Origin: an uncultured Pseudobdellovibrionaceae bacterium
Lineage (GTDB): Bacteria; Bdellovibrionota; Bdellovibrionia; Bdellovibrionales; JAGQZY01
NCBI GenBank assembly: GCA_964588335.1
Contig: CAZPOV010000003.1
Coordinates: 148,125 to 212,124, forward strand
DNA: 64,000 nt
Direction: 5' to 3'
The notes beneath the pieces were generated by a model that worked only from the letters and a program-made list of their open reading frames with translations, had not been told where the DNA came from and ran no database searches. How positions within the stretch are numbered: the first letter of the stretch is position 1; the number at the start of each line of letters is the position of its first letter. A program made the translations under genes and the position numbers. Positions 33,061 through 61,024 of the stretch are shown here, in pieces.

Positions 33061-33151
33061 TCGATCACCTTGTCATTATTATGGTGCAAAAGTAGGGTAC
33101 GACTTTGCTTGACTCAAGGATAAAGAGTACACTAGAAGCTAAGGACGCACC

Positions 33152-35775: not shown

Positions 35776-35784
35776 GGATTTTCA

Positions 35785-44466: not shown

Positions 44467-46686
44467 ATGAGTGTTTTTAATCGAGCCGAGGTGATTGATA
44501 AGAACTTCCAGAGTCGTGTCGCCAGCCTGGAACTCCCTAAAAACAGTTCAAACACTCCGTACCATGACGCTGTCATGCCCCCCGAGGAGCTCATAGACCT
44601 GTTTGAAAGCCAAGTCATGAGCCGCTGCCTGGACCTGCGCGCCCGCGAGCTTAAAAAGGATGGTCATTGCTATTATACGATTGGCAGCTCTGGGCATGAA
44701 GGCAACGCCGCCTTCGCCAAAGCCTTCCGCTACACCGATGTTGCTTTTTTACACTATCGAAGCGCGGCTTTTTTTATTCAACGAGCCAAACAGAAAATGG
44801 GATCGACACCGCTTTTTGATCTTTTGCTTTCCTTTATGGCTTCACAAGACGATCCCATTTCTGGTGGACGACACAAGGTTCTGGGCAGTCTGGATCTTTG
44901 CATCCCACCGCAAACTTCAACCATAGCCTCACATTTACCGAAAGCCGTGGGAGCTGCTCTTTCCATTGGCAAGGCCAAAGATTTGCAAATCGCCAGTCGG
45001 TGGCCAGAAAACAGTGTCGCTCTTTGCAGCTTTGGCGACGCTTCGGCCAACCACTCAACGGCCTTGGGCGCCATCAACACCGCCAGCTGGGTGGCCTATC
45101 AAAACATCAAGCTGCCTTTAGTTTATTTTTGTGAGGACAATGGCCTGGGTATCTCTGTTAAAACCCCCAACGAGTGGATCAAGAAAAACTTTTCGGGACG
45201 TCCAGGATTATTGTACCTTGAGTGTGATGGTTTGAATTTGGTCGATGTTTATCAAACCTGTCGTCATGCCGCTCAATATGCCCGAGCCCGCAAGAAACCG
45301 GTTTTTGTGCGTATGAAAACAGTGCGCCTGTTGGGACACGCGGGGAGCGATGTCGAGTCTAACTATCACTCCATGGATTTTATCAAGAACACTGAGGCCC
45401 AGGACCCCTTGTTGCACAGTGCACGTTTACTGATTGAAAATGAAATTTTATCGAGCGAGGAGATTCTTAATCTTTATCAACATGTGAAGCAAAGAATTCA
45501 GCACGTTTCCGATCAAGTGGTCTTGCGCAAACCACTACAGAACATCGAGGACGTGGCGGCATCCATCACGGCTTGCACCCATCCACAGCCCCCTCAACCC
45601 CTGAGTGATGAGGCATCCCGAGAGCCACTTTTTGAAAAAGAATACAGTAAACTCAGCACACCTCAACATATGGCGAAATTGATCAATTGGGGTCTCAACG
45701 ATGTGATGCTTCAATATCCCAACACTTTGGTTTTTGGCGAGGATGTGGCCGAAAAAGGTGGCGTCTATCACGTCACTGACAATCTGAAAAAACGCTTTCG
45801 TTCACGACGAGTGTTCAACTCTCCGCTGGATGAACAAAGTATTTTGGGAACCGCCATCGGTTTGGCCCACAATAATTTTATTCCTATTCCAGAAATTCAA
45901 TTTCTAGCCTACGTTCACAATGCCGAGGATCAAATCCGTGGTGAAGCGGCGACCTTAAACTTTTTTTCAAAAGGCCAATACACCAACCCCATGGTCATCC
46001 GTGTGGCTGGGCTGGCTTATCAAAAAGGCTTTGGAGGCCATTTTCACAATGACAACTCACTGGCCATTTTCCGCGACATCCCGGGGCTGATTATCGCGGT
46101 GCCAAGCCATGGCGCCGATGCCGTTAGAATGCTGAGAACCTGTGTTAAGGAAGCCCATGAGCGAGGCCGGATCAGTGTCTTCATCGAGCCGATTGCTCTG
46201 TACATGACCCGTGACCTTCACGAGGAGAACGACAAAGCCTGGACCTTCCCGTATCCAGATCCTTCCGAGCACGCACCTTTGGGGGAGTGGTCAACCTATG
46301 GCGACGCTGACTCCAAAGTCGTCATTCTCACTTATGGCAATGGCACCTTCTTATCCTTACAAGCCCAGAAACTATTGCAGGAAAAACATGACATCTCATC
46401 ACAAATCATTGATTTAAAATGGATTGCTCCGCTGGATCAAGAAAAGCTAGCCTCTGAAGTTGGCAGCAACAAACATGTTCTCTTCGTCGAAGAATGTCGG
46501 CAAACTGGCTCTTTCGCCGAAGGGGTGATTTCACAGTTGGCCATACGCAACCCGCAAAACCGTTACCAAATTCACGGTGCCGCCGATTGTTTTATTCCTC
46601 TCGGTCCAGCGGCGACAGCGGGTTTACCCAGCCGAGAATCCATAATTAAAGCTGTCCTCGACTTCACAGGAGGAAATCATGAGTAA
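44467..46686 (+). CDS. 2-oxoacid dehydrogenase E1 component, fused alpha+beta subunits (TPP-dependent)
   Basis: 739 aa. The alpha part has SSGHEGN and FGDASANH...YFCEDNGLGIS (TPP motif). The beta part has FGEDVAEKGGVY and NSPLDEQSILGTAIGLA. Confidence 0.85.
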   Translation: MSVFNRAEVIDKNFQSRVASLELPKNSSNTPYHDAVMPPEELIDLFESQVMSRCLDLRARELKKDGHCYYTIGSSGHEGNAAFAKAFRYTDVAFLHYRSAAFFIQRAKQKMGSTPLFDLLLSFMASQDDPISGGRHKVLGSLDLCIPPQTSTIASHLPKAVGAALSIGKAKDLQIASRWPENSVALCSFGDASANHSTALGAINTASWVAYQNIKLPLVYFCEDNGLGISVKTPNEWIKKNFSGRPGLLYLECDGLNLVDVYQTCRHAAQYARARKKPVFVRMKTVRLLGHAGSDVESNYHSMDFIKNTEAQDPLLHSARLLIENEILSSEEILNLYQHVKQRIQHVSDQVVLRKPLQNIEDVAASITACTHPQPPQPLSDEASREPLFEKEYSKLSTPQHMAKLINWGLNDVMLQYPNTLVFGEDVAEKGGVYHVTDNLKKRFRSRRVFNSPLDEQSILGTAIGLAHNNFIPIPEIQFLAYVHNAEDQIRGEAATLNFFSKGQYTNPMVIRVAGLAYQKGFGGHFHNDNSLAIFRDIPGLIIAVPSHGADAVRMLRTCVKEAHERGRISVFIEPIALYMTRDLHEENDKAWTFPYPDPSEHAPLGEWSTYGDADSKVVILTYGNGTFLSLQAQKLLQEKHDISSQIIDLKWIAPLDQEKLASEVGSNKHVLFVEECRQTGSFAEGVISQLAIRNPQNRYQIHGAADCFIPLGPAATAGLPSRESIIKAVLDFTGGNHE

Positions 46687-47710
46687 AAAACGCGCCGTAG
46701 TCATTTGCCCCGGTCGAGGCTCTTACACCAAAGAAAACTTGGGCACCCTAAAAGATCGATCAAGTATCAAGCAAGACCTGCAACTGATTGACGAAGAGCG
46801 AGTCAAAAGAGATTACCCAACGATCAGTGATCTCGACAGTTCGGATAAGTTTAAAGTGTCTTTGCACACCAAAGGCGAGCACGCCTCACCTTTGATTTAT
46901 ACCTGTGCCAAGGCCGACTTTTTAGAAATCGATAGAGAAAAGATCGACGTGGTGGCGATGGCTGGCAATTCCATGGGTTGGTACCTGACTCTGGCTTTTG
47001 CTGGCGCCCTTAACCCCTATGACTCTTACCATCTGATTCAAACCATGGGCTCTATGATGGAAAAGGAACTGATCGGCGGCCAAGTGATTTACCCCATCAT
47101 CGATGAAAATTGGCAACGTGATCCCGTCAAAATCGAGCAAGTTGAAGATCTGCTGATAGACATTAACAGCACTCCCGATGCCCAGGTCTACACCTCCATT
47201 CACCTCGGTGGCTACAAGGTCTTGGCGGGTAATAAAAAAGGCGTGGCTCTGCTATTAGAGAAACTGCCTAAAATCGACCCTTACCCCTTTCAGCTTGTGA
47301 ATCACGGCGCTTTCCACACGCCTCTGCTAAAAGAAATCTCTGAAATTGCTGAACACTCTCTGTACAAAATTAAATTTGAAAACCCCAAGATTCCTATGAT
47401 TGATGGTCGTGGTCATATTTGGCCCACTTACGCCAGCAACTCGAAACAGCTCTATGAGTACACTCTGGGCCACCAAGTCACTGAAACTTACGATTTTTCA
47501 AAATCAATTGAAGTGGCGATAAAGGAGTTTGCGCCTGACCTTTTGATTCTTCTTGGCCCAGGCAATTCTTTGGGGGGAAGTATCGGACAAATACTGATTG
47601 AACATCAGTGGTTGGGAATCAATGATAAAGCGACCTTTCAAAATCGTCAGGCCGAAAATCCATTTCTTATTTCGATGGGGGTCAGCGACCAACGGGCGTT
47701 GGTCACCTGA
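46679..47710 (+). CDS. FabD-like acyltransferase (AT-fold, GxSxG)
   Basis: VICPGRGSY (compare FPGQGSQ), AGNSMGWY (GxSxG nucleophile elbow) and NHGAFHTPLL (compare SxPFHSxLM). It overlaps the E1 gene by 8 nt. Confidence 0.65.
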   Translation: MSKKRAVVICPGRGSYTKENLGTLKDRSSIKQDLQLIDEERVKRDYPTISDLDSSDKFKVSLHTKGEHASPLIYTCAKADFLEIDREKIDVVAMAGNSMGWYLTLAFAGALNPYDSYHLIQTMGSMMEKELIGGQVIYPIIDENWQRDPVKIEQVEDLLIDINSTPDAQVYTSIHLGGYKVLAGNKKGVALLLEKLPKIDPYPFQLVNHGAFHTPLLKEISEIAEHSLYKIKFENPKIPMIDGRGHIWPTYASNSKQLYEYTLGHQVTETYDFSKSIEVAIKEFAPDLLILLGPGNSLGGSIGQILIEHQWLGINDKATFQNRQAENPFLISMGVSDQRALVT

Positions 47711-47727: not shown

Positions 47728-50700
47728 TTACTGTTCTAAAAAGTAAGGGCCCCAGTTTTGCTGTTGACGCTGATAAAACCTTTCAGTGTTGATTTGAAAC
47801 TGGTTCATTTCATTCTGAAATTGATAAACACTTTGAGTTAATGGCTTAAACTCAAAAAGATCATCTTGCAGACTGACTTTGAGCTGAGAAGGGTTTTCTG
47901 GATAATAATCAAGAAACAAAGCCTCGGCATTCTCGTAAAGCTGATGAGCTGCATCCAATTGTAAATTCAAATCCTTTTTCGCTTGCACAAACTGCTGATC
48001 TAAAATTTCTTTATCAAATTTAAAAAGAAACAGTCCACGCCGAGTACGGGCCTCAAAAAATTCTTGAGCTCGAAAAAAGTAGGTTTTCCAAAAATCGCCA
48101 TCGCGATCATAGGACGGGGACACAGCGGCTCGAACCAAGTTGCGAGAGGTCGCATGAAAATTAAGGGAAACATAATAATCATTAATAAAATTACGTCCAA
48201 GATAAGGGGACGTCACCATCTCCAACGGCAAATCTAAAAATCCTTTCAGTCGACTGAATGGGATTGGCTTTTCGGTTTCATTGATCACCGCAAAGGCTTT
48301 GCTCTGTTGATGGCCTATTCCGGTATCGAACAGCAATTGAATACCCATGTTCTGTTTATGGAGAAAGTCCGTCTCCTTAATCGCCTCAAGATAGGTCTGC
48401 TCAGCTTGATCAATCTGCACCAGATTAAAACTCTGATGCATAGCTCGGGCTAAATCTTCAAGTGCCACTTTCTCTTCGATCAAACAGTCTTCAGAAAGGG
48501 GACGGTTAAGTTCTTGGCATTGTGGCTTGTCGTAGTTGGCAATTTTGTAGCCATTGAAAAAATACCGTTGAACCAAATGATCCAAGCGACCTTTTTCATA
48601 ACTTTCAAGATTTTCGACGTTCGACGAGTAATGGATCACCTCTTCTTTATCCCAAGCTGTGTAGAGTTCTCGTTTGGGAGAAAAGCTGAATTGATCAGAG
48701 GCTTGGGCCACGGCCTCAAGCGCAATCGCCGCCGCTGTCATATTGGGACGGTAGTGGACTACCGAGTCCGGAGCCTCGCGGTACGGAAAATCGGGGCTAT
48801 TGAGAGCATCAATAGGCATCTGTATGGTGAGACTACGACCGACGACGGCCGGAATCTCAAGATCAATAGCTTCATTCTGGTTGTACCTTAAACCGGTTGT
48901 CAGATAACGACGCACTCGGTTCATGTAGCTTTGTTTGGTAAACTTATAAAAAACCTGATCACCACTTTCAGACTTCACAATCCGAGAATCGTAATGCGAA
49001 CTGCGACCATTGACTTCAAAAAGAATATCATTGGCTTCATCGACGGTGAGTTCCGATTGATAAACCGCTTTTAAAAGAGGATAGACGGCTTTCATAAAGT
49101 ATTGCTTTTCACTTAAAACCACGGCTTTGGCTCGGCGTCGAGACTCATTGATTGAAACATACATGCAGTCATCAAAGATTTTTCCGTAAAAAGCCTGTTG
49201 TCCAAGATAGGATCGCACTCGATTATCAAGACTTTGAAAATAACGGGCTGTCGACTCAAGAGGAACTCTTGAAAACTCAGAATTCTGACGTTGCAGTTTT
49301 TGATAAGCCTTCATCACCTGATCAAAATATCCCATGATCGGAAGCACTTCTTGCCGAATTCGCGAGGTCACTGTTAAAGGTGAAGTATGAGTGAAATCCG
49401 CCGGATCAATCATAATAGAATCAAACTGAGAGCTTCGAAATTCATCACTATAGAAAAAGTTTGTATAAAACCGGTCCGAGATCTTTCGGTTCTCGAAGAA
49501 ATCTTTACTAAAACCCAAAAGATACTTGTCGAGATCGAAATACCGGATCAGCTCAGGTTGGTATTGATCCTTTTTAATTCCCTCACACCAACGAGCCCAA
49601 CGTCGCGACAGACTGTCTGGCGAATGATAAAGGTCACGCTGCATCTCCTGCACTGTCGAAATTAATATTTCTCTTTCGATCACTAAGTCTTTGAATAAAG
49701 TGAGAATAAAATCATCAGGATCAAAACCGTAAGATTTATAAACATTACCGGCAAAAAAGTAGTAAAAACTATCGACAATTTCGTGACGAAATAGACTGAC
49801 TTTGTTTTTTAAGGCACCAGAACCAATTCCATCTTCCGATTTTAAAAAATCGAACCATAAGCCACGGTAGGCACCAGCAAAGAACAGCTCGACAATAAGA
49901 TCGGCATTAACATCAAAAACACCAAGAAGCTTATCTTTCCACTCCGAGCGAACCATCTCGTACATGAAGGCCATCATATTTGGGTAAATCACTGTCTTCA
50001 TGACATTACGATCGATACTGCTAAAAAACTCTGCGATTTCATTGATTTGTTGCGAAGAAAGGGCTGTCGATTGCGCTTCAAGAAGATTTTGTAAAGCTTC
50101 GACACGACCGGTGTGAAATTCGACCCAATCAGGACGAAGAGTGTTTGCATAATCTTTCGAAGCCTTAACATGTTGAGCCGACTTGGTGGCCTGACTGTTG
50201 TAAAACGCTGCAATTTTCTCATTGGTATCGACTGCCATAATAGCTAAATCCCAACGGATTAAAACTTTACTGTAGTCGATGAGTCGGTCCAATGACTCGG
50301 TTTTGTTTGGAAAACTACGGATTAATAAGTTGGCCTGAGTGATCGACATTTCTTTGAAATAGACTGAAAACAGAACATGGTACTCCCATGGAGCGATTTC
50401 AAACATCTTTTGTATGTTGATATCTTTATAAGCCGGGTACTCAGAAAGATCCTTTTTACTGGCAATCATTTCTTGCCAATAGGCTTGCGCGTAGCGATCA
50501 AAACTGTCTCGAATCTCAGGATTCTCGTTGGCGTAAATCGAAATAAAAGGCGTTAAGAAGTTTTTAAGATCACGGTCCACCAAGGATGATTCCGACGATG
50601 CCTGTTGCCAAGGCGCCAAACGTATGAAATAGCGGCGTTGAAACTCTGAAGGGTTCTGCCAGTCCATCAGCTGAAAAGCCGCGATCACGTTGTGTGAGTG

Positions 50701-51387
50701 TCGTGCTTTTTCTGGAATATCGATATTTTGGTCCACCATAGAGAAAAAAGTTTCAATATAAAGTTGCGACAGATTGTCTTTTTGCCGACGGTTACCAACC
50801 TCGTAGGCAACACCAATCAATTTCAATTTACTTTCTAGATTGTCTTCGTTTTCAATAAAATAAATGACTATATCAACCAAGGAACTGGCCTGTGGAAGAC
50901 TTTCGCGCAGGTATGTACAGGTGTTGATACTGTCATCAGTACAAGGCGTGATGAAGCGCTCACGAAACAACGCCAATGATTTTTCAAACTCTGAACGAAA
51001 AGTGTCGTCGTTTGAGGTTTTGAATTTGACAAATAGGTCACGGTACAAGTTGAGGTAACCAGCATAAGGTCGACTTCCATATTGCGACTTGTCTTTTGAC
51101 CCCGGTCCAAACAACGCCAATTGGAGGCGCTCTAAAGCCAACACCCAACTCTCGATGGATTCAGATTCAATCAAAGCCTGAATTTGTAGATGATCGGGGC
51201 CATATTGCACAGACACTTCGCCGGCAGGGGATTGAGGTTCAACTCGGGTATTGGCCAAATCCTCATCCACGACTTTCTGGTGACGCGGCAGCTCCTTATC
51301 GGTGCAAGCGACGCCCCCAAAAACAAGGGCCAGTGCTAAAGTGCTTTGATAAAATGCTTTTACCCAATCGGTCTTAATCATTAACAA
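47728..51387 (-). CDS. 1219-aa orphan lipoprotein, paralog of the upstream 1234-aa gene
   Basis: Lipobox FGGVAC. I recognise no motif in it. A shared block with 51374..55078 is IYPNMMAFMYEMVRSEW...LIVELFFAGAYRGLWFDF versus AYPSMYPMLVAMTKNEL...LISLFFSGSFSPWFSY. The start overlaps the upstream gene by 14 nt. Confidence 0.7.
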   Translation of the reverse strand: MLMIKTDWVKAFYQSTLALALVFGGVACTDKELPRHQKVVDEDLANTRVEPQSPAGEVSVQYGPDHLQIQALIESESIESWVLALERLQLALFGPGSKDKSQYGSRPYAGYLNLYRDLFVKFKTSNDDTFRSEFEKSLALFRERFITPCTDDSINTCTYLRESLPQASSLVDIVIYFIENEDNLESKLKLIGVAYEVGNRRQKDNLSQLYIETFFSMVDQNIDIPEKARHSHNVIAAFQLMDWQNPSEFQRRYFIRLAPWQQASSESSLVDRDLKNFLTPFISIYANENPEIRDSFDRYAQAYWQEMIASKKDLSEYPAYKDINIQKMFEIAPWEYHVLFSVYFKEMSITQANLLIRSFPNKTESLDRLIDYSKVLIRWDLAIMAVDTNEKIAAFYNSQATKSAQHVKASKDYANTLRPDWVEFHTGRVEALQNLLEAQSTALSSQQINEIAEFFSSIDRNVMKTVIYPNMMAFMYEMVRSEWKDKLLGVFDVNADLIVELFFAGAYRGLWFDFLKSEDGIGSGALKNKVSLFRHEIVDSFYYFFAGNVYKSYGFDPDDFILTLFKDLVIEREILISTVQEMQRDLYHSPDSLSRRWARWCEGIKKDQYQPELIRYFDLDKYLLGFSKDFFENRKISDRFYTNFFYSDEFRSSQFDSIMIDPADFTHTSPLTVTSRIRQEVLPIMGYFDQVMKAYQKLQRQNSEFSRVPLESTARYFQSLDNRVRSYLGQQAFYGKIFDDCMYVSINESRRRAKAVVLSEKQYFMKAVYPLLKAVYQSELTVDEANDILFEVNGRSSHYDSRIVKSESGDQVFYKFTKQSYMNRVRRYLTTGLRYNQNEAIDLEIPAVVGRSLTIQMPIDALNSPDFPYREAPDSVVHYRPNMTAAAIALEAVAQASDQFSFSPKRELYTAWDKEEVIHYSSNVENLESYEKGRLDHLVQRYFFNGYKIANYDKPQCQELNRPLSEDCLIEEKVALEDLARAMHQSFNLVQIDQAEQTYLEAIKETDFLHKQNMGIQLLFDTGIGHQQSKAFAVINETEKPIPFSRLKGFLDLPLEMVTSPYLGRNFINDYYVSLNFHATSRNLVRAAVSPSYDRDGDFWKTYFFRAQEFFEARTRRGLFLFKFDKEILDQQFVQAKKDLNLQLDAAHQLYENAEALFLDYYPENPSQLKVSLQDDLFEFKPLTQSVYQFQNEMNQFQINTERFYQRQQQNWGPYFLEQ

Positions 51388-54300
51388 CTTCTTTTATTTC
51401 ATTAAGGTGCGAATTGATGTCAGAACGGTAATAGAATTTAAAATTCCTATTCATGTCACCGACAAATGTTTCAAATTTACCAAACTGAAACTCACTAACA
51501 ACCGGATCAATGGCATTGTCACTGGCATCACTGGCTCCAATAGGGAAACAACGATCATTTTCATAACAGTAAGTTCCTGCTTCAATGGTTGGGGCCATGA
51601 TCTTAGCCTCAATCAGGAAGCGTTTCACTGATTTAAAATAGTCGCTAATCCACAACTTGTGATCATTATCAAACAGTCCATAAATCTCCTCTTTGTTGTA
51701 AGGAAAGATAAAATAAGCCTTTTCCAAGTCATCTTCAGTGGATGTGAAGCGCGACAGACGATCTTGAAACCAAACACCCTCTTCACTGCGCACGCTACTG
51801 TCGGAAAAGACCTTTTTAAAGATCAAATCAAAGTAGGAGAACAACTGGTGATTGTTCTGTCTTTTAATAATATTCTCGTACTCCGTTCGGGTGTATTTTT
51901 TCACCTTACCAAGAGTCGTGAAAACAAATTTGTCGACAGGATCGTAATGCATGTAATCGATCATATCTTTATAATGATTGATCACTTCCGCAGGATGAAT
52001 GGATCGACAGTCCTGAGCCTGCTCTGGATTGTCACAATTAACATCATCAGCGACAGGAAGATCATTCAGTTTAAAGATTCCCGTAATTGTACTCCCTTTA
52101 CGTTCTATAAGACGCATATCCGGTGCACCAGATGACCATCTGAAAACTTTGGCAAACTCAAGTAAACCCTGCTTGATAAAATCACTTTTTGCGGTTTCTT
52201 TGTCTTTGCCCGTCCAATCAAATCGGACTCGCCATTTGTCGGACTTTTGAAACAGGCCATCTTCGATGTTGTCAAAACGACGGGGATATGAAAATTGGTA
52301 CTGACCAGCAAAAGGCTCTTCGCTCAAATAGCTAACTAAACGGGCATAATAATCCGATTTGTACATAACCAATTCCAAAGCCGTCATCTGTGAATAACCA
52401 TGATTGTCTCTAAAATCATCAGGCAGATGGGTGTTCTGATTGGCGTAGGTGAAGACCTCTTTACGAATATCCTCAATGGACGCCAATTGTTCTTGGCTCA
52501 GATTCTGTCTCTCTTCATCGGTCATCTGACCCACAGAGGCATACATTTTCTCAAAAAGATCTTCGAGAAACTGGGCTTCCTTGAAAAATAAAGCATAACG
52601 AACATCTCGTTCACGTTTAAGGAACGGAAGTTCACAGGATTGCCCGTTGACCTTTAATTCATCGTGCATTTCAAAAAACAAATCCGTGTACTCATGCTTT
52701 AAATCATTAAACTTTTTAAACTGCTCATCAATGATCTGCTCTAAAGACTCCTCACCTTCAACAGCGATATCATTGTCCTGGGCGTAACGTTTGTACATTT
52801 CAACCAACATCTTGACTTTGGTGTTATTCAAAACGTAGCCACTTTGAAAACGTTCAAAAGTCGTATTAACGTCATGAGAATAGACATCTTCGAAGTACTT
52901 ATAAGCACTATCACTGACATGATCCGAGTTCTGCGGATAAACCACACTTTGTCCAAGCTCAATAAAATCGATATCGTTTTTTCCCTGTCGACGAGGCAGT
53001 AGGTTCTGATTGAATCCTGTTACAATATCAAAATTACCGCTCTCTACGTTTTCGACGAGACTGCGACGTTCACGCTCTTGTAAACGTATTTCCTCGGCAC
53101 ACATCGATTTTAGATTTTCTATTTTCGACTGATAACTACCACGCACACGTTTTAGGTTGGTGAGCTTTATTTCGAGATTCTTTTCATTTTCCTCAATAAA
53201 TTTTGCCACAATGATGCGAAAAAATTCTTTTGCATCAAACTGCATTTTCGAGTTGTTTTTATAACTGCTCAAAGTCTGGGTCACAATGGTGTAATAAAAC
53301 GCCACCATCAGCTCAGTTTCGTCCAAAGCGACGGTGTTTCCACCGTATGAAAACCAAGGGCTAAAGGAACCAGAAAAGAAAAGACTGATCAGTGTATTAT
53401 GGTCGATGGTACCGAACCAGAAAGACTTTTTCAGCTCATTCTTTGTCATAGCCACCAACATCGGATACATCGACGGGTAGGCGGCCAAATATTTGATATT
53501 TAACTTAATAGCACGCACCAAAGTTCGAAACTCATCACGCGCTCGACGATTCTGAAAATCCGAATCAGGAACCACACGGTTGATAAAATCCAATAAATAG
53601 GTGGCTCTCAGATTGATTTTCTCCCAAGACAGGGTCAAAAAGTCAGCCTCTTGCTTGGTTTGCTGCAAAAGTGTGATCAAACCACCACTGTCATTGTTCT
53701 CATAAAACTTGTTCATTCTTGCATTGGTAAAAACGATGTTATAAACCAACTGCATTTTGATCAAATGAGTGGCGGCTTCGATCAATCGTTCACTGTTACG
53801 ATTTGAGTTTTCCCAAAACGAATCCGAATCAGAAATATAATAATGCTCATAAAATATTTGATGAGTCAGATAAAAGTACTCGTCATACTGAAAGTTCACA
53901 TCACCCATCATCGATCCTAGGATATTCTTACTCTCAGATCCAAACTTCATGACCTGGGGATTGGCCTCTAATTCGGCTTCAACCAGTTCATCGCGCTCCG
54001 GACTAAAAACCGTTGCTTCAGAAGCATCACTCCATGCGCCGTTGATATTGCTTTTCTGGAACTCAATTCCGTACTCGAAGTCTGATCCAATTCGATATTT
54101 AAGGTCCTCGATGGCCTCTTGCATTGAATTGGAAAGACTGGTTTTTTGGGCGTCCGAATAAAGAAATTTCTCGGAGGCTATTTTCAATAACTCGGGCATC
54201 GACTGCGATATTTCATCACTGGAACTCCGACTCATAGTCCATGGGTTCAGTTGTTCAACAATCGAGATATAGCTGTCATTACTGGCAAAATCCAAAGAAT

Positions 54301-55078
54301 CCAGTTTCAAAATCGTCGCAAACAATTGGTTGTCAAGCTGTCGACGAGTGGTTGAAAGCTCACCTTTTTGACGCAACTCAAAGCTCTCTAAAATCCGAGA
54401 CATGAGCATCAATCTTAACGTCGTATCCAAACGACGATTCTTCAGATCAAAAGTGGCTCGTAAAATACGTGTTTTTTCAGCCTCAACCGACTCATTATCG
54501 TAAATTATTTGCATGACTTTTGAAATATTGGGGGAGTCTGCATTCCTAAAAAAGTTTATGAGCTTGCAAGACCCAACAAGATTTTCATCACAGTCCCACA
54601 GAATAATATTCTTATAGGCCGGTAAGATATTGGTTGTAGTTAAAATCTCTTTATTACTGCCGTAAACCATAATCAGGGCTTGGTCAAAAAGACTGACCAG
54701 CTGATAACTCAGTTTTCGTCGATTTTCATCCATTACATTGCGAAAATCAGGGTTCAGCATGTTGTCCATATCGAAAAGAACTTCTTTCAGCGGTATGATG
54801 ACCTTCGTCATCAGCATATTGGGGTCCCGCTGTTCTTTGTGTTTCTCAAGCTCAGAGTTTACGAAGGGGCGAGTTTGTCGAATAAGCAGTTCCAATTGGC
54901 TTACCATGTCTTGATTCTGTAGACGTAGAGATTCGCTCTCTTCAACCAGATAATCGCCATCAGTCATCATTCGCTTCCGGGAGGAAGACTCAGGACTACA
55001 AGCGACTAGCAAAAGAGCGGTGACTAGCAGAGTGGTTCGCAATAGATCTTTAAGTGTCATCGTGTTCCTCATTGTCAT
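51374..55078 (-). CDS. 1234-aa orphan lipoprotein, paralog of 47728..51387
   Basis: Lipobox LLLVAC. The start is 3 nt after the metalloprotease stop. There is no HExxH motif. Confidence 0.7.
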   Translation of the reverse strand: MTMRNTMTLKDLLRTTLLVTALLLVACSPESSSRKRMMTDGDYLVEESESLRLQNQDMVSQLELLIRQTRPFVNSELEKHKEQRDPNMLMTKVIIPLKEVLFDMDNMLNPDFRNVMDENRRKLSYQLVSLFDQALIMVYGSNKEILTTTNILPAYKNIILWDCDENLVGSCKLINFFRNADSPNISKVMQIIYDNESVEAEKTRILRATFDLKNRRLDTTLRLMLMSRILESFELRQKGELSTTRRQLDNQLFATILKLDSLDFASNDSYISIVEQLNPWTMSRSSSDEISQSMPELLKIASEKFLYSDAQKTSLSNSMQEAIEDLKYRIGSDFEYGIEFQKSNINGAWSDASEATVFSPERDELVEAELEANPQVMKFGSESKNILGSMMGDVNFQYDEYFYLTHQIFYEHYYISDSDSFWENSNRNSERLIEAATHLIKMQLVYNIVFTNARMNKFYENNDSGGLITLLQQTKQEADFLTLSWEKINLRATYLLDFINRVVPDSDFQNRRARDEFRTLVRAIKLNIKYLAAYPSMYPMLVAMTKNELKKSFWFGTIDHNTLISLFFSGSFSPWFSYGGNTVALDETELMVAFYYTIVTQTLSSYKNNSKMQFDAKEFFRIIVAKFIEENEKNLEIKLTNLKRVRGSYQSKIENLKSMCAEEIRLQERERRSLVENVESGNFDIVTGFNQNLLPRRQGKNDIDFIELGQSVVYPQNSDHVSDSAYKYFEDVYSHDVNTTFERFQSGYVLNNTKVKMLVEMYKRYAQDNDIAVEGEESLEQIIDEQFKKFNDLKHEYTDLFFEMHDELKVNGQSCELPFLKRERDVRYALFFKEAQFLEDLFEKMYASVGQMTDEERQNLSQEQLASIEDIRKEVFTYANQNTHLPDDFRDNHGYSQMTALELVMYKSDYYARLVSYLSEEPFAGQYQFSYPRRFDNIEDGLFQKSDKWRVRFDWTGKDKETAKSDFIKQGLLEFAKVFRWSSGAPDMRLIERKGSTITGIFKLNDLPVADDVNCDNPEQAQDCRSIHPAEVINHYKDMIDYMHYDPVDKFVFTTLGKVKKYTRTEYENIIKRQNNHQLFSYFDLIFKKVFSDSSVRSEEGVWFQDRLSRFTSTEDDLEKAYFIFPYNKEEIYGLFDNDHKLWISDYFKSVKRFLIEAKIMAPTIEAGTYCYENDRCFPIGASDASDNAIDPVVSEFQFGKFETFVGDMNRNFKFYYRSDINSHLNEIKEVVND

Positions 55079-55081
55079 CTC

Positions 55082-58000
55082 CTATTCCAAATACTGGAAC
55101 ACTTGGGGAAGGATCCATCCGTTTAGAGAAAGAGCTGTAGCACCAATAAGGCCCAGTCCTTTCCGCGATTCAATACACTCTCTTTGGTCTGGTTTTCTAA
55201 CGCCATCCAAACTGTTGTACTTTTCAAATTGTTCGATCACTGAGTTTTCAAATTGCTGCTGCGTTAAACTACTGACAGCGATATTTGATGATGTCGTAAA
55301 TCCGTCGAATTTCTCTTCTTTGATCTCACCCTCCTCATCTGTGGTTCGATTGTTTTTAGTAAAGAAACTGGCTAGACCATTTTCACCACGCATACAATCA
55401 TCCAAGACCTTGTTTGACAGGGTTCGAATAATCGATTTAACGCTAAACCCTTGCAAAGGGTCACCATTTCGAGTTGGCTCGTAAGTCACCTCGACGGCCC
55501 AAATGTAAGCGGTTTTTGGTCCAATAAATCTGAGTTTTGTTAATGGCATAACGATCTGACCGTCTGTTCCACGCACCACGGTGTTTCCGTGCGGCAAGAT
55601 GTAAGCTTCCGGGAGCGTAATCAATCCGTCTTTGGCGCGACTGAATATCTTAGGTGTGAATCCAAAGATGATTGAATCAGAGATCTCTTGATCGACAACA
55701 GCTTCAAATAGAACTGGAGACACACTCACACGAAAGTTGGTCTGACCTTTAACATCATCCAAAAAGATATCATCAAAGCCTCGATGCAAATTGTCTCGAG
55801 TCAGCCAATTGTCTCGTCGCAAAAAGTATGACATGTACAAGTTCGCCAAACTCAACGAGGCTTTATCGCCCAGGTCAACACCTCCAAATGACATGTTGTT
55901 TTCAACCGAAGATTTAACAATATCGGTGTACTCTTCAGGATAGAAGGCATAATAGCTGTAATTACCTTTTTTACCTGAGTATTGAGGCTTGCTCACATTC
56001 CAGTATCCGTATCGCATTGTCGAAGACGGTGAGGTTAGAACGCTGAGTGCGGCCAACTTTAGGGGCAGAATCCCCAAAGTTATATAACGTCCAAAAACCT
56101 TATTGTATTGGGCTCGGGCGTTGGCACCTCGCAATCCTGTTGGAATCACTGAGCCTTCGAAGTCATACTCGGTATGATCATACCCAGGCAGCGAAAGTAA
56201 AGTTTTGGTGTGGTCTAAAGACTTTCGGTTGGCGCGACAAAGCTTATGAAGCTCTGTAAAAGCCACTCCATCAGCATAAAGACTGTTCTCTAAGTCCAAT
56301 TTCTCCTCAGCTGACAGGTCGAGATAGCTTTTGTCTCCAAAACTTCTCATAGCGCCTCGGTATTTATTTAACAGTGTTCTGTTGATCGAGTTGTAATCAC
56401 CGCCGCGGCGTTCGGTTTCGAAAAGTTTACCTGTCGCGGTAGCTGTCGGCTGTAGAACCAGCTTCGCAAAATCTTCTTGGTAGTCATCGCTAGCAAGTAG
56501 GGGATCGACACAGGCTTTAGAAAACTGGACCAAAACGTCACGGTCAGCAATCATCTCGTAGAACACCTTGGCATAGCTCGGTCTGTGAAGATCATCGATC
56601 ATGTCGAAACGCATCTTATCGTAAAATGTTCGATTGTAGTTCATTAAAGCATAAGTGTCGTGCCAAAGCCTCCAGCTCATGTAACTATCGCTACCTCCAG
56701 TGGCTTGCGTGAACGAGTTCATTCTCTTGATAAATGAATCTTTAAATTGATCAAAATTGTCGTCAATAATAGTTGGCGCATCATGACCGCTATCCCAACG
56801 TCGACAATAGGGGTCGGTCGCTAACCAGGCTTCCAAATCTGAACATTGTGGCATATAGCGCACCTGTCGCATCCGCCCTTGGTGTATAATGGTTTTTGGA
56901 ATGCTTCCGTCAATTGGTAGGTCTACCATAACGAAGTCATCTTCTCCAGGCTCAAAAGTCGCGATTTTTTGGTTATAAAGATATTGTAAAACCAGTTCAT
57001 CGTGGCTGCGCAAAGTCACATCCTCTGGTTTCAGTGAAACCTCTGTTTGCCCACTCTGGTAATCCATGACACTGGTATAGTGTTTACCCGAACGAACCCG
57101 TTCACTCATCTCTTGATAAAGAGTTTCAGGAATTGTTCCTCGTTCTGGCAAAATATTTCCTTTAAATTGGTGCCCCATTCCTAGGACATGACCAACCTCA
57201 TGCAACATGACATTTTTGATAACTGAAATAGCCGCTTCTTCACGCTCGGGATAGCCCATTTCTGAAGTTTGCGCCAGCCACTCACCGTAGTGATCGGCGA
57301 TGGTATTATCCCAATCAACATCCATTCGAAGCATGGTTTTGTAGTCAGTAATCAACTGCCTCTTGACCTCTTCAGGATTCTCGTTACTGATAACAGAGTT
57401 TCTTTTTTCCTTCTCAAGGTCGCTATAGACGGCTGAAACGCCAAGCTGGGATTTTTGCATCAAAGACTGTTTGTAGTCCTGTTCTTCTAAACGAAAGTTC
57501 CTAAAATCGGGGAAGACATCCGAGTCCAAATTATTAGGTACGGTTGCAACCACTTCAGAGATCTTTTTATTCACCAATTCTTCTATTTTTGACTGCAGAA
57601 CTTGACTGGCATTTTGACCACTTGCGGTCAATTGCTCTATCACTGACGCCTGTTGGTAATGGGATTGCAGTTGCCCAGCCTCATCTTCAATACCTAGAAC
57701 TCGAACCAGTTCGGTTTGTTCCATCGCACTCGCTTGGCTCGCATTGGCTCCAGCGGCTTCAATTTTCGCCTGCACATGAGTCAATAGCATCGCACGGAAA
57801 GACTCTTTTAATTTACTGTCGTCGGCCAGCTCTTCATGCTGCCCAATCGGACGCATACCCGTAATGTCAGGCATCTCTAACTGATGATTAATGTCCGAGA
57901 AATAGGGTTGATCTTTGATCGATTGAATTCTCTCTAAGACTTCATGAGTGTTTCGGGCCAATGCATCCACTGGCGATTCCGATTCACGATTGACAAGATA

Positions 58001-59209
58001 ATCGATCATTCCACCCCAAACAATAGCGCTTCCCCAAAGGATTTCACCGGTTTTGATGTTGGTATTCACCAAACCGATACCAAGAGGGGCACCCATAGAG
58101 AGCTCTGGGTCGGCGACAAAATTAATACTGGGACAACGCATATCAAAGACGTAATCATAGGTTTTGTCTGATACAACAAAACCAACCTGTCCGTCTTTAA
58201 GAGCTCCAATCTTGCGCAAGGTCTTGTTGACCTCGGCGATCACTTCTTCTCCTATCTTTCTATATCTTCCATCCTCAGGGAATCCATTCAGACACATCTT
58301 AATGGGTTTTGAGAAGTCCCAGTGAGCCGCGTAATTTTTTTCGTTCATACCATCTTCACGAGTCCCAAGAATATGCAGAATGTTCATATTCTGAGAGACA
58401 GTGTCTGGATCGTAGGCTGTGACTTTAAAACCTTTGGTTCCTTCGAACTCTAGGAAATTAAAACGAATCTCATGTTGAACGTCAGACCCAAACACACTAG
58501 ACGTTAGAGTGCCTGTGTAAGCAAAAAAGTTCTTACCGTTTTCATCTTGCGACAATTCAATATCGTGAACGTCGTGAACTCGTCCTCCGTTTAGAGGATG
58601 ATAGGTTCCGAAAAGAATAAGAGGGTCTTTTTCTCTATTTGTATAGTTAATATTTTTGATGTCGAGGTCCATATACGGCTGCAGCTGCCAGTTCTTTCGA
58701 TCAGAAACTTTGGCAAATCGATTCAACTCGCGACCTCTTGAATCCACGTCTTTTTCATAAAAATAGTGCTTTGTGATTGGAATCACAAAAAGAGTCTGCC
58801 AATCCGCAACATTCGGCTTGTCGACGTTGACCTCAAGAGCTTCAAGTCCTGAACCATCCTCAGTGATTCTAAAAACCATGTTACAGTGACGAGTATTATA
58901 AGGGGCTCCGGTCAGACCACCGACATTTTTAAATTTTCCGCTCTGCCGAACCGGCGCCCAACCACACAGCCATGTTTTATCTTCATAAGCCCATTCATTG
59001 GTTTCCTGGTTGATCTTAATACCAAAGAAAGATTTCTTTGCCGACAGAACACCATTTTGAACTTTTCCAAAAACCGAGGATTGCTCAAGTCCAGGAACCG
59101 GGTTTTCCTCTTCCGGGGTCACATAAGTGCATTGGCTCAAGAATAAGTAGGCGAGCGCCAGTACACTTATTGCGATGGTGGATTTTAGCTTTAGGGGAGT
59201 CCGCATCAT
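55082..59209 (-). CDS. 1375-aa secreted/lipoprotein metzincin-type zinc metalloprotease (DUF5117/DUF4953-like)
   Basis: HEVGHVLGMGH (plus-strand coordinates 57170-57202) is an HExxHxxGxxH motif, followed ~37 aa later by the SVMDY Met-turn. The upstream GAPLGIGLVNTNIKTGEILWGS block is typical of this family. The signal peptide ends FLSQC. Confidence 0.8.
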   Translation of the reverse strand: MMRTPLKLKSTIAISVLALAYLFLSQCTYVTPEEENPVPGLEQSSVFGKVQNGVLSAKKSFFGIKINQETNEWAYEDKTWLCGWAPVRQSGKFKNVGGLTGAPYNTRHCNMVFRITEDGSGLEALEVNVDKPNVADWQTLFVIPITKHYFYEKDVDSRGRELNRFAKVSDRKNWQLQPYMDLDIKNINYTNREKDPLILFGTYHPLNGGRVHDVHDIELSQDENGKNFFAYTGTLTSSVFGSDVQHEIRFNFLEFEGTKGFKVTAYDPDTVSQNMNILHILGTREDGMNEKNYAAHWDFSKPIKMCLNGFPEDGRYRKIGEEVIAEVNKTLRKIGALKDGQVGFVVSDKTYDYVFDMRCPSINFVADPELSMGAPLGIGLVNTNIKTGEILWGSAIVWGGMIDYLVNRESESPVDALARNTHEVLERIQSIKDQPYFSDINHQLEMPDITGMRPIGQHEELADDSKLKESFRAMLLTHVQAKIEAAGANASQASAMEQTELVRVLGIEDEAGQLQSHYQQASVIEQLTASGQNASQVLQSKIEELVNKKISEVVATVPNNLDSDVFPDFRNFRLEEQDYKQSLMQKSQLGVSAVYSDLEKEKRNSVISNENPEEVKRQLITDYKTMLRMDVDWDNTIADHYGEWLAQTSEMGYPEREEAAISVIKNVMLHEVGHVLGMGHQFKGNILPERGTIPETLYQEMSERVRSGKHYTSVMDYQSGQTEVSLKPEDVTLRSHDELVLQYLYNQKIATFEPGEDDFVMVDLPIDGSIPKTIIHQGRMRQVRYMPQCSDLEAWLATDPYCRRWDSGHDAPTIIDDNFDQFKDSFIKRMNSFTQATGGSDSYMSWRLWHDTYALMNYNRTFYDKMRFDMIDDLHRPSYAKVFYEMIADRDVLVQFSKACVDPLLASDDYQEDFAKLVLQPTATATGKLFETERRGGDYNSINRTLLNKYRGAMRSFGDKSYLDLSAEEKLDLENSLYADGVAFTELHKLCRANRKSLDHTKTLLSLPGYDHTEYDFEGSVIPTGLRGANARAQYNKVFGRYITLGILPLKLAALSVLTSPSSTMRYGYWNVSKPQYSGKKGNYSYYAFYPEEYTDIVKSSVENNMSFGGVDLGDKASLSLANLYMSYFLRRDNWLTRDNLHRGFDDIFLDDVKGQTNFRVSVSPVLFEAVVDQEISDSIIFGFTPKIFSRAKDGLITLPEAYILPHGNTVVRGTDGQIVMPLTKLRFIGPKTAYIWAVEVTYEPTRNGDPLQGFSVKSIIRTLSNKVLDDCMRGENGLASFFTKNNRTTDEEGEIKEEKFDGFTTSSNIAVSSLTQQQFENSVIEQFEKYNSLDGVRKPDQRECIESRKGLGLIGATALSLNGWILPQVFQYLE

Positions 59210-59366
59210 GGGATTTCATCCTTTCTTTTTTTATTAACACTTTTTAAGGTACACAAAATGTACCAAGTCTAAGTCACCGAAATGACAGTAAATATTATGC
59301 TTACAGCGCTCCAATAAATGGCTCCACCGTAAAATTGTCAGACACTTGTCCGCAGGTTGTCAGAAT

Positions 59367-60281
59367 TCAAAACGAATAGGTCACCCCACCCGAAATCAAG
59401 CGACGATATCGGTCAAACATCACCGGATCGATACTGTCGTTTTCTGGATATGATTGATTGAGATAGCTTAAGTAAAGTTGAAAACCCTGGACGTTGGCAA
59501 AAAGGGTGACATTGTTACCCATGACCGTTGTCCATTGACCATCAAGGTAGCGTTCAGCACTGGCATTAAAGCTGGTGCGCAACCCCAAAAAATTCCATGG
59601 AACGTAAGTGATTCCAAAAGAATTGGCGAGCAACCAATCGCGATTGATGAGATCAGTTGTAATTGAGTATTTTTGACTGTTCCACTGAAAGTGAGCCATC
59701 ATTCGATTGAATAGAATCATCTTATTCCAGCTGTATGAACTCATGAAGTTTGTCAAAGAAAGACTTCCGATGTGTTTATCAAAACGACTGACCTCACTGG
59801 TCGGTAAAGAGATATTGAAGGTATTGGAGCTGCGATTCACAAACGAAAGAGGCTTCATCTTGGAGTACACAACTCCAAAGTTCAGATTGGTAAATTGATG
59901 AAAAGGCTCGCTCGAAGTTTCGCGGACAATTCGACCGCCGTACGATTCATGAAGAACCCCAGCCGATGTGTAAGCACTCCAATGCTTATCAAAACCATAG
60001 GTGCCGGCGAGAGACAAAATATGACGGGTGGTTTTGATCTCGACTTGCTGTAACTGATCGTAAGTAAATCCATAGTTTGCGATCAGCCCAAAACGATTGG
60101 CCGGTGGCATGAAGTCCGATTGGTCCACACCCAGTTTGTTTTTTTCACTTTTCTTTGATTTTTTCTTATTATCTGTGATTTGAGTTTTGCTTTGGTTGGA
60201 CTTTTCTTCAGCAAACGCTGACGGCAATGACACCAGGCCACTCAGGAAAACTGCAATGAATGATTGAAATATAGGACGCAA
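59367..60281 (-). CDS. outer-membrane beta-barrel protein (small, ~14-16 strands predicted by eye)
   Basis: Signal peptide ...LPSAFA, alternating hydrophobic pattern, aromatic-rich sequence, and a C-terminal GGVTYSF ending in Phe. TTG start with a GGAGAGG RBS. Confidence 0.6.
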   Translation of the reverse strand: MRPIFQSFIAVFLSGLVSLPSAFAEEKSNQSKTQITDNKKKSKKSEKNKLGVDQSDFMPPANRFGLIANYGFTYDQLQQVEIKTTRHILSLAGTYGFDKHWSAYTSAGVLHESYGGRIVRETSSEPFHQFTNLNFGVVYSKMKPLSFVNRSSNTFNISLPTSEVSRFDKHIGSLSLTNFMSSYSWNKMILFNRMMAHFQWNSQKYSITTDLINRDWLLANSFGITYVPWNFLGLRTSFNASAERYLDGQWTTVMGNNVTLFANVQGFQLYLSYLNQSYPENDSIDPVMFDRYRRLISGGVTYSF

Positions 60282-60730: not shown

Positions 60731-61024
60731 TTAGAATGCCACCTCAACACCACTGTCATAAGTTTCCATTGAGGTGAATTCGATGCCTTGTTCCTGAGAG
60801 CTTTGATCGTCAGCTGACGCCACAAAGAAGGGAACGGTGCCAAACGGGCAGGGTGAATTCGGTCCGGTGACAGCTGTATAACCATCAGCACCATCCATAC
60901 AATACCATCCTGATACCGTGATCGTTGATTGACTTTCACTGGACTCACTTTGTAGGTCTTTTGGAGCATAGGCAAAGGACACATTGGCCAGCAACATTGA
61001 TAGAATAATGATCGTTTGTTTCAT
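60731..61024 (-). CDS. small secreted hypothetical protein
   Basis: Signal peptide MKQTIIILSMLLANVSFAYA and a GAGGAG RBS. It ends in ...VEVAF. Confidence 0.5.
   Translation of the reverse strand: MKQTIIILSMLLANVSFAYAPKDLQSESSESQSTITVSGWYCMDGADGYTAVTGPNSPCPFGTVPFFVASADDQSSQEQGIEFTSMETYDSGVEVAF

Follow-up and report, generated by a model that had tools for sequence, protein, structure and literature searches.

Two tandem genes in the window (the whole 64,000-nt stretch of DNA analysed, from an uncultured Pseudobdellovibrionaceae bacterium), here designated A and B, define an unannotated superfamily of giant lipoproteins, whose members recur in a four-gene module together with a lipoprotein of the metzincin clan and a small putative outer-membrane protein (OMP). 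We give about an even chance to the reading that this module encodes an envelope metzincin complex of ~470 kDa in which A and B, without being catalytic, serve as scaffold or select the substrates. A superfamily without annotation is thus provided with a confident structural model and with constant genomic partners, and hypothetical ORFs become a concrete proposal, a tri-lipoprotein metzincin machine of ~470 kDa that includes an outer-membrane protein of its own. The phylum is one of bacterial predators, in which large proteases anchored in the envelope are candidates for a part in attacking or recognising prey or in harvesting nutrients.

The two ORFs, which an earlier note on this DNA had called lipoproteins, lie on the minus strand and are real lipoprotein genes, each with a lipobox. 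The B gene (51374..55078) encodes the position-1 giant lipoprotein of 1234 aa (lipobox LLVA-C27; mature protein ~142 kDa), and the A gene (47728..51387) encodes the position-2 giant lipoprotein, which has 1219 aa when read from the TTG at 51387 (lipobox GGVA-C28, with Cys28 as the lipid Cys; mature protein 1192 aa, ~140 kDa). The true start of A is likely the ATG at 51381, giving 1217 aa, and the identical database protein, P0004, has 1217 aa and matches A from this ATG. A signal peptide followed by a lipobox Cys was found in B, in A and in the adjacent metzincin (LSQ-C27), and the three proteins are predicted to be lipidated at this conserved residue; the lipobox Cys is retained in 96% of 138 family members. 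Phe (6.6–7.1%) and Tyr (4.7–5.6%) make up ~1.7–1.9 times their share of a typical bacterial proteome in A and B. Of the four residues in which both proteins had been described as rich, Asn and Glu are raised just mildly. Internal repeats were not found in A or B by self-BLAST, and a motif scan of both proteins found no HExxH, Walker A or GxSxG, as had been reported for repeats and for the first two motifs.

The neighbour of B on the minus strand (55082..59209) encodes a 1375-aa lipoprotein that carries the zinc-binding motif HEVGHVLGMGH (residues 670–680; 57170..57202) and the downstream Met-turn SVMDY (residues 713–717; 57059..57073), both conserved in 8 homologues, and its earlier assignment as a metzincin was borne out. 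H670, E671, H674, G677, G679, H680, Q681 and F682, as well as S713, M715 and Y717 of the Met-turn, were invariant in these homologues, and the HExxHxxGxGH zinc site followed by a Met-turn places the protein in the metzincin clan. The protein also matched the Pfam family DUF4953 (PF16313, 'Met-zincin'), its score of 26.4 bits being just over the cut-off (24.2), and 6 of the 8 homologues matched this family at E ≤ 0.01. DUF4953 resembles the window metzincin, and not A or B, in its HExxHxxGxxH motif and Met-turn; it is a Pfam family without known function, of which no mention turned up in a literature search. The match spans ~200 of the 1375 residues, and no profile matched the first ~640 or the last ~500. 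From the conserved zinc site and Met-turn, the metzincin is predicted to be an active protease and the catalytic subunit of the module.

The metzincin, B and A genes are consecutive in the window. The stop codon TAG of the metzincin gene is separated from the ATG of B by 3 nt (GAG; 55079..55084, minus strand), and the stop codon of B overlaps the ATG of A by 8 nt (AATGATTAA; 51374..51381, minus strand). Judging by these two junctions, translation of the three large genes is coupled. Flanking DNA was sufficient at 13 related loci (39–56% GC), all of which carry the metzincin, the first paralogue, the ~300-aa OMP and the second paralogue, and the genes for metzincin, B, OMP and A are all present in the window and in the loci L001–L006. 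Among seven independent metagenome loci (39–56% GC), six show the gene order metzincin, family member, OMP, second family member; L012, a fragment of 3.8 kb, has just one family member and then the OMP. In some loci the OMP gene lies between B and A, the position that it left for the front of the module in others. The co-occurrence, which extends down to about 25–30% identity, the 3-nt gap and the 8-nt overlap support well the functional association of A and B with the adjacent metzincin that had been proposed earlier.

The fourth gene of the module (59367..60281, minus strand) encodes a probable outer-membrane β-barrel of 304 aa, with the signal peptide ...PSAFA|EEK, a mature part of ~280 aa and the C-terminus ...GGVTYSF. 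In L004, the gene between B and A encodes a ~305-aa protein with 53% identity to it, and phmmer found homologues in all seven metagenome loci. The alignment retained the signal peptide, and a C-terminal Y/V-x-F was present in 11 of 12 members, so that both a Sec signal peptide and a C-terminal aromatic β-signal were found. The Pfam family OMP_b-brl (PF13505) matched 1 of the 12 homologues weakly (3.9e-4), a PDB profile search with the OMP gave no match, and a crude count of amphipathic strands was no higher than in the shuffled sequence. From the signal peptide and the C-terminal signal, the 304-aa protein might fold as a barrel, and we make this assignment tentatively. In Neisseria, Slam combines a DUF560 barrel with a TPR domain at the N-terminus, and its substrates typically have a C-terminal β-barrel domain. 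The module resembles this system in that a barrel gene adjoins lipoprotein genes that it could serve. However, the OMP has neither DUF560 nor TPR, and the helical model of A has no C-terminal β-barrel domain. A Slam translocon with Slam-dependent lipoproteins was rejected, since DUF560 and TPR gave no match at E ≤ 1 in the 12 OMP homologues and the mature OMP is so small.

A and B were compared at two levels of sensitivity. BLASTP gave one significant segment only (E 1e-8, 24% identity over 223 aa), whereas hhalign of the A-family and B-family profiles gave a probability of 99.93% and E 3.5e-36 over 1052 columns (A 3–1181, B 7–1227). This alignment check, which the earlier note had set beforehand as a possible refutation, clearly detected the similarity. 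The shared YPxM...FF(A/S)G...WF block described before is real and lies inside the BLASTP segment, but homology is not confined to the middle of the proteins; the similarity had been under-called, as the profiles align A and B over their full length. The core block extends from Y468-P-N-M471 to FFAGAYRGLW511-F512 in A (residues 468–512; 49852..49986, minus strand) and from Y534-P-S-M537 to FFSGSFSPW575-F576 in B (residues 534–576; 53351..53479, minus strand), and P442, M444, G478, W484 and F485 of A (mature numbering) are 85–98% conserved in 138 sequences. Besides the lipid Cys, A contains just six more Cys, seven in all: C122/C130, C574/C714 and C930/C941. Each of these six has a Cys counterpart in B, and four are 99–100% conserved in the 138 sequences; A and B are probably stabilised by three disulfides. 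Full-length homology, the three common Cys pairs and two copies in fixed positions at each adequately covered locus support the proposed ancient duplication. With the B-type HMM, B scored 1503 bits, and with the A-type HMM it scored 0.

An exhaustive HMMER scan found 303 clusters (50% identity) at E ≤ 1e-3 and 116 at E ≤ 1e-30, compared with only 6 clusters from a word-indexed homology search, and the members of the 303 clusters are nearly always 1050–1350 aa long. The closest homologues of A and B are 70–100% identical and the nearest copies from paralogous modules 25–35% identical, all over the full length. A and B had no match in Pfam, NCBIfam or PADLOC (sub-threshold noise only) or among PDB sequences. 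In 36 diverse relatives there was no recurring Pfam match, five unrelated families appearing once each at E ≥ 4.5e-4, and NCBIfam gave zero matches; the earlier statement that A and B have no recognisable domain holds. The family size of 303 clusters and the fourth partner at 59367..60281 had both been missed in the earlier note.

The AlphaFold model of A (maa9844716189), built from a 64-sequence alignment, reached pLDDT 87.7 and pTM 0.80, and all five models scored 85–88; the pLDDT rose from 41 to 88 after the sequences from the profile search were added. Helix accounts for 60% of the model and strand for 5%, and the C-terminal third is mixed α/β, predominantly helical with short scattered strands. 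Residues 1–31 have pLDDT below 50, which corresponds to a disordered tether of ~30 residues. Foldseek of the model against the PDB gave no real match, with a query-normalised TM of at most 0.17, and no known domain family explains A in this check, which had been suggested before. The best matches were α-solenoids (karyopherins, PPR10), at E 0.009 or worse. A is likewise large and mostly helical, but this resemblance is generic and not homology, and the C-terminal third of A is mixed α/β; HEAT/ARM/TPR/PPR α-solenoids were rejected because there are no sequence repeats, no match to a repeat family in Pfam and no TM above 0.17. Peptidase inhibitors (α2-macroglobulin, TIMP and the serralysin inhibitor) were also rejected: their hallmarks, which are MG/thioester domains, an OB-like TIMP fold and the Inh β-barrel, gave no Pfam or PDB matches, and the model has 60% helix and 5% strand.

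From these data we propose the following model. The three large genes are translated in a coupled manner and in about equimolar amounts, as the gene junctions show, and the metzincin, B and A would be exported and then lipidated at the conserved Cys of their lipoboxes. None of the three has Asp at +2, and by the E. coli rule, which may not be that of Bdellovibrionota, they would therefore go to the outer membrane. Each lipoprotein could be suspended there from a disordered tether of ~30 residues, as modelled for A. The invariant synteny is consistent with assembly of the three lipoproteins and the barrel into a ~470-kDa envelope protease machine, in which the metzincin would be the cutter and A and B the scaffold, gating or substrate-selecting walls. 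The one line of evidence for a non-enzymatic role of A and B is their conservation pattern without catalytic residues, and we infer from it the scaffold or substrate-recognition role, and from the synteny the physical complex. The paralogues evolve at different rates: in cross-matches between distant loci, the position-1 proteins scored 80–190 bits and the position-2 proteins mostly 0–50 bits, which suggests that one of the two may carry specificity. The slower-evolving B would be the structural partner and the faster-evolving A the source of variable specificity, while the barrel may serve as an anchor of the complex, an exporter or a route of product uptake. Given the Bdellovibrionales host, the target is plausibly, if speculatively, an envelope protein of prey or of the environment.

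In architecture alone, the closest analogue of the module would be dentilisin of Treponema denticola, a PrcB-PrcA-PrtP lipoprotein protease complex that is outer-membrane-associated and encoded in a single operon (PMC8167434). PrcA and PrcB are unique to oral spirochetes, and co-immunoprecipitation of PrcA2 and Msp identifies an outer-membrane protein as a physical partner of dentilisin (PMC8167434). Dentilisin combines, in one operon, a lipoprotein protease with two accessory lipoproteins, comparable to the three coupled lipoprotein genes of the window, and in both cases no domain can be recognised in the accessory proteins, which are taxonomically restricted. However, PrtP is a subtilisin whereas the window protease is a metzincin without a subtilase match, A and B greatly exceed PrcB and PrcA in size (PrcA ~70 kDa), the latter two are not mutual paralogues, and here the OMP is encoded within the module. 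No sequence relation was detected or is expected, PrcA and PrcB being judged from their published description, and the resemblance is therefore architectural only.

A different division of labour, rather unlikely in our judgement, would make A and B the functional products, such as a surface coat, an adhesin or a prey-contact structure, which the barrel, as a dedicated translocator, brings to the cell surface and the metzincin matures or releases. The synteny supports this equally, and dentilisin, in which processing of PrcA depends on PrtP, is an earlier example of this for an accessory lipoprotein (PMC8167434). When the two module types were compared, the metzincin was 44% identical (over the full length, to the L004 homologue) and the OMP 53%, but B only about 33% and A 27%; proteins that are exposed or take part in recognition are expected to evolve faster in this way. 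The otherwise disordered tether also has a short conserved motif, which, counted from the lipid Cys in 134 sequences, has R at +8 (53 sequences), H at +11 (59) and E at +12 (40) and might signal export or docking. Surface exposure of A and B is, however, an assumption, adhesin-type domains and repeats are absent from both, the OMP shows no detectable relation to Slam/DUF560 translocators, and a metzincin lipoprotein of 153 kDa is very large for mere maturation. A further reading, which we regard as distinctly doubtful, is a new type of surface machine peculiar to Bdellovibrionota-like predators, in which the barrel acts as dedicated translocon or dock and displays the three ~140–150-kDa lipoproteins, the tether motif (K..PR..HE) is the export or docking signal, and the novel-fold paralogues form a prey-recognising cage that passes envelope proteins to the metzincin in the attack, with the fast-evolving A setting the prey range.

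TIMPs and the serralysin inhibitor Inh act by placing their N-termini in the active site. By analogy, A, B or both might be stoichiometric inhibitors or chaperones that hold the metzincin inactive or protect the envelope of the producer, perhaps acting through the tether motif in its active site, but we consider this improbable. The tight gene coupling with a copy ratio of 1:1:1 and the His/Glu motif 8–12 residues past the lipid Cys in many members agree with such a role, and published work (PMC8235301) provides a precedent for a metzincin paired with an inhibitory lipoprotein. On the other hand, A and B, at 140 kDa each, far exceed any known metzincin inhibitor in size, the His of the tether motif is missing from the window B-type proteins, and the all-α fold, with no Pfam or PDB match, is unlike TIMP, Inh and α2-macroglobulin. 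Conservation distributed across all 1200 residues also points to a larger structural role.

That A and B are themselves enzymes of an undescribed class, acting for example on prey peptidoglycan, lipopolysaccharide or polysaccharide and forming with the protease a machine that degrades the envelope through several activities, is slightly more improbable still. No known fold explains A, and an unrecognised active site is therefore possible; R797 is nearly invariant (99%) in 138 sequences, and E733 (86%), N434 (85%) and the YPNM and PWF motifs are conserved. Apart from this Arg and this Glu, the most conserved columns in the same sequences are nevertheless Cys, Trp, Phe, Pro, Met and Gly, which are typical of structural cores, and no His/Asp/Ser constellation was found among them. 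Known catalytic motifs are absent, the 36 relatives showed no profile match to any enzyme family, and Foldseek returned generic α-solenoids only, with no α/α-toroid hydrolases or lyases.

Finally, a merely coincidental or co-inherited adjacency of functionally unrelated genes is effectively refuted: the synteny of the loci nearest the window (L001 and L002) by itself proves nothing because they are 80–95% identical to it, but the four genes still co-occur among loci whose proteins are only 20–35% identical and whose GC content runs from 39 to 56%, while the flanking genes vary from locus to locus and the module survives relocation of the OMP gene.

All members of the family derive from uncultured metagenome bins. 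At least one genome carries two modules, each with ~12 kb of 'hypothetical' coding sequence.

The two giant lipoproteins, A and B, are encoded in a run of four consecutive minus-strand genes in the window (47728..60281). The first gene (59367..60281, minus strand) encodes a probable outer-membrane protein (OMP) of 304 aa, with a Sec signal peptide (PSAFA/EEK) and the C-terminal sequence GGVTYSF. After a spacer of 157 nt it is followed, on the same strand, by a metzincin lipoprotein protease of 1375 aa (55082..59209; lipobox LSQ-C27; motif HEVGHVLGMGH), by B (51374..55078; 1234 aa; lipobox LLVA-C27) and by A (47728..51387; lipobox GGVA-C28). A has 1219 aa when counted from TTG, and its true start is probably the ATG at 51381, two codons downstream; this start yields 1217 aa, as in the 100 %-identical database protein P0004. 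The metzincin, B and A genes are tightly coupled. Just GAG lies between the metzincin TAG and the ATG of B, and the stop codon of B overlaps the ATG of A within AATGATTAA by 8 nt. Asp is absent from position +2 of all three lipoproteins, and by the E. coli +2 rule, which may not be that of the host phylum, they would be sorted to the outer membrane. The mature masses are 32 (OMP), 153 (metzincin), 142 (B) and 140 kDa (A), and a 1:1:1:1 assembly would total about 467 kDa by computation. The module is flanked by opposite-strand, unrelated housekeeping genes for an E1 dehydrogenase, an acyl-CoA dehydrogenase and an L,D-transpeptidase. A 343-aa ORF without a Pfam match (46679..47710, plus strand) converges on the 3' end of A with a gap of 17 nt, and adjoins the module only in two near-identical loci, L001 and L002. 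Upstream of the OMP gene, at a distance of about 450 nt, a 97-aa ORF (60731..61024, minus strand) has a clear signal peptide (MKQTIIILSMLLANVSFAYA...); it falls below the 100-aa cut-off of the window ORF listing. Scanning the window for tRNA genes and Rfam families gave no match.

The metzincin is predicted to be active, since its zinc-site and Met-turn residues are invariant. All eight homologues keep H670, E671, H674, G677, G679, H680, Q681 and F682, together with S713, M715 and Y717 of the Met-turn. The Met-turn has a Tyr two residues past the Met, as is likewise found in astacins and serralysins. Membership in Pfam DUF4953 is weak (26.4 bits; cut-off 24.2), and 6 of the 8 homologues match this family. 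Searches with the other ~1100 residues, PDB profile searches included, found no match. A relationship of the non-catalytic regions of the metzincin to A or B was ruled out by negative BLASTP and hhalign comparisons, in which the signal peptides alone aligned. The small protein of the module is a probable outer-membrane beta-barrel. Its family shares a signal peptide and a conserved LPTSE.SR.E motif, 11 of 12 members have a C-terminal aromatic residue, and one member matches OMP_b-brl (3.9e-4). A crude Kyte-Doolittle alternation count gave 22 windows for this protein, versus 33 +/- 11 in shuffles.

The earlier note had described A and B as tandem paralogues of ~1200 aa, rich in Phe and Tyr, without a recognisable domain, internal repeats or catalytic motifs, and sharing colinear blocks near the middle. 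The finding proved to be real and better than first described. Phe accounts for 6.6-7.1 % and Tyr for 4.7-5.6 % of the residues, HExxH, Walker A and GxSxG occur in neither protein, self-BLAST detected no internal repeats, and the Pfam, NCBIfam and PADLOC searches were all empty. The shared YPxM...FF(A/S)G...WF block sits in the sole BLASTP-significant segment (24 % identity, 223 residues, E 1e-8). The paralogy is stronger than had been claimed, as the homology extends beyond the middle block to the full length. While a shallow profile comparison (4 versus 3 sequences) recovered just a core of 215 columns, the deeper profiles of 17 A-type and 15 B-type sequences aligned over 1052 columns (A 3-1181 with B 7-1227) at 99.93 % probability and E 3.5e-36. 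Alignments of 7 and then 14 sequences already had conserved cysteines in colinear positions along the whole length. Mature A contains exactly seven Cys, i.e., the lipid Cys and C122/C130, C574/C714 and C930/C941, and each of the six non-lipid Cys is aligned to a Cys of B. Among 138 family members, the C574/C714 pair is invariant, and conservation of C122 and C130 reaches 99 %. The three conserved pairs, as presumed here, fit disulfides in an extracytoplasmic protein.

A sensitive profile search, one of the checks proposed for the pair, showed that the family is large. The exhaustive HMMER scan, in which a trimmed A+B profile (first 100 alignment columns removed) was run against 1.84 billion representatives, returned 303 clusters at 50 % identity with E <= 1e-3, 268 with E <= 1e-10 and 116 with E <= 1e-30, and nearly all members were 1050-1350 aa long. 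Word-indexed homology searches queried with B, with A and with a profile of 14 sequences gave only six clusters, and the profile query lost the A-type matches. The impression of a near-orphan pair came from these searches and was ruled out by the exhaustive scan; a verdict of orphan status that relied on indexed searching alone would have misled. No recurring Pfam or NCBIfam match was present among 36 diverse family members. Every cluster looked up was a metagenomic singleton or near-singleton with uninformative annotation, and two members were named just 'hypothetical protein'. The GTDB representative genomes gave five matches, all in metagenome bins labelled Bdellovibrionales or Pseudobdellovibrionaceae, in a scan that used B-type-specific patterns and sets no limit to the range of the superfamily.

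The structure of mature A was predicted by AlphaFold from 64 aligned sequences of the exhaustive search, giving a mean pLDDT of 87.7 and a pTM of 0.80, with 784 of 1192 residues at pLDDT >= 90 and all five models at 85-88. A model from a 7-sequence alignment had a pLDDT of 41 and was kept out of the fold search. Overall, helix makes up 60 % and strand 5 % of the confident model. It begins with a disordered tether (residues 1-31), followed by a region that is 72 % helical (~37-455), a middle part in which three helices span 27-36 residues apiece (643-749), and a C-terminal third of mixed alpha/beta structure (771-1192). Foldseek, which the earlier note had also suggested, found no PDB counterpart and no match among viral structures, and PDB sequence searches with profiles of A, B, both mixed, the metzincin and the OMP gave nothing usable. 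The giant lipoproteins constitute an unannotated superfamily with a confident model that has no counterpart in the PDB. Past the lipid Cys, in a tether that is otherwise disordered, there is a short conserved motif, approximately C-T-P-K-x-x-P-R-x-x-H-E-G. It reads CTDKELPRHQ in A (C28-V39; 51270..51306, minus strand) and CSPESSSRKR in B (C27-M38; 54964..55000, minus strand), where the Arg is kept and the His is absent. In the family alignment, Arg +8 occurs in 53, His +11 in 59 and Glu +12 in 40 of the 134 members scored. This motif may act as a signal for sorting, docking or protease binding.

In the 138-sequence alignment, Cys, Trp, Phe, Pro, Met, Gly and Tyr prevail among the 60 most conserved columns, which hold no His/Asp/Ser-type constellation. 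The conserved polar residues among them are R797 (near-invariant), E733 (86 %) and N434 (85 %). This pattern reads as the signature of a structural core and not of an active site. It makes a non-catalytic role of A and B the preferred, though unproven, interpretation: they would serve as scaffold, gate or selector of substrates. Alternatively, A and B may themselves be the product, a coat, adhesin or prey-contact structure that is exported by the barrel and matured by the metzincin. This fits all observations as well as the conserved tether motif, and we consider it unlikely. That A and B would act as inhibitors holding the protease latent has the tether motif and 1:1 coupling in its favour, but is very unlikely, because a conserved helical protein, at 2 x 140 kDa, is oversized for an inhibitor and its fold is unlike those of known inhibitors. 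A new enzyme activity in A and B is very improbable, as the conservation pattern speaks against it.

The decisive evidence came from related loci, where the four genes form a fixed module. L001 and L002, which are 80-95 % identical to the window, have the window order of OMP, metzincin, B and A. A second module type, with the order metzincin, B, OMP and A, was found in L003, L004, L005 and L006; over the full length its metzincin is 44 %, its OMP 53 %, its B about 33 % and its A 27 % identical to those of the window. L001 and L003 belong to one bin ('Bdellovibrionales bacterium YZ12B_2.97'), and their B proteins share 95 % and 34 % identity, respectively, with that of the window. A single genome thus holds both types, and for this reason the organism of the window probably carries a second module elsewhere in its genome. 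A metagenome scan queried with 20 distant 'C-type' members gave seven further loci (39-56 % GC). By local hmmsearch and phmmer, six of them contain, in this order, a metzincin (~1190-1270 aa), a family member, a ~300-aa OMP homologue and a second family member, and L012, a 3.8-kb fragment, contains a family member and the OMP and nothing else. Genes beyond the four vary between loci. The OMP gene has been relocated: it is upstream of the metzincin gene in the window, L001 and L002, and between both paralogues in all 11 other loci including the fragment (e.g., L003:6667-7575, L004:13754-14677 and L005:13862-14794, compared with 59367..60281 in the window). The latter looks like the ancestral order. 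Since the synteny outlasts divergence to 20-30 % identity and the relocation of the OMP gene, there is strong evidence that the four genes are a functional unit, and the idea that A and B adjoin the metzincin by coincidence is effectively refuted. The superfamily is locked into this four-gene metzincin module, carried by Bdellovibrionales and unclassified relatives. Position-1 (B-like) proteins cross-match across all loci at 80-190 bits, while position-2 (A-like) proteins are far more divergent, often at 0-50 bits. Judged from this contrast, the duplication is older than all modules sampled, with the two copies differing in evolutionary rate. Such unequal rates would suit a pair in which one partner is structural and conserved and the other is more variable and may bear specificity. 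In L006 (14718-18349, a JGI contig) the A-type gene is annotated as two ORFs of 768 and 440 aa, both A-type by score. A frameshift or pseudogene, misassembly or a genuine split of the gene may be the reason.

From this context, we infer that the module encodes a kind of outer-membrane lipoprotein protease complex. By architecture its nearest analogue is dentilisin of Treponema denticola, in which PrcA2 was co-precipitated with Msp, an outer-membrane protein (PMC8167434). The logic is shared, but the sequences, protease class and sizes are all different. The module also has accessory subunits that are paralogous, and it includes an outer-membrane protein of its own. The Slam system was ruled out, as DUF560 and TPR were not found and A lacks a beta-barrel domain at its C-terminus; a known defence system was likewise ruled out by PADLOC. 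None of the four proteins matched transporter families in Pfam, and literature searches on the Pfam names and on Bdellovibrio with lipoprotein and metzincin found no account of the module. That the module is a surface predation machine of a genuinely new type appears decidedly unlikely. Elsewhere in the window, a 1409-aa ORF (37246..41475, plus strand) has an N-terminal Na+/H+ exchanger membrane domain (Pfam 5.6e-28) and a weak AAA_22 match near residues 1103-1210, an unusually long fusion. The AT skew is strongly negative at 32001..38000 (-0.18 to -0.26 in 2-kb bins) and ~0 in the rest of the window, probably owing to the T-rich codons of plus-strand membrane-protein genes.
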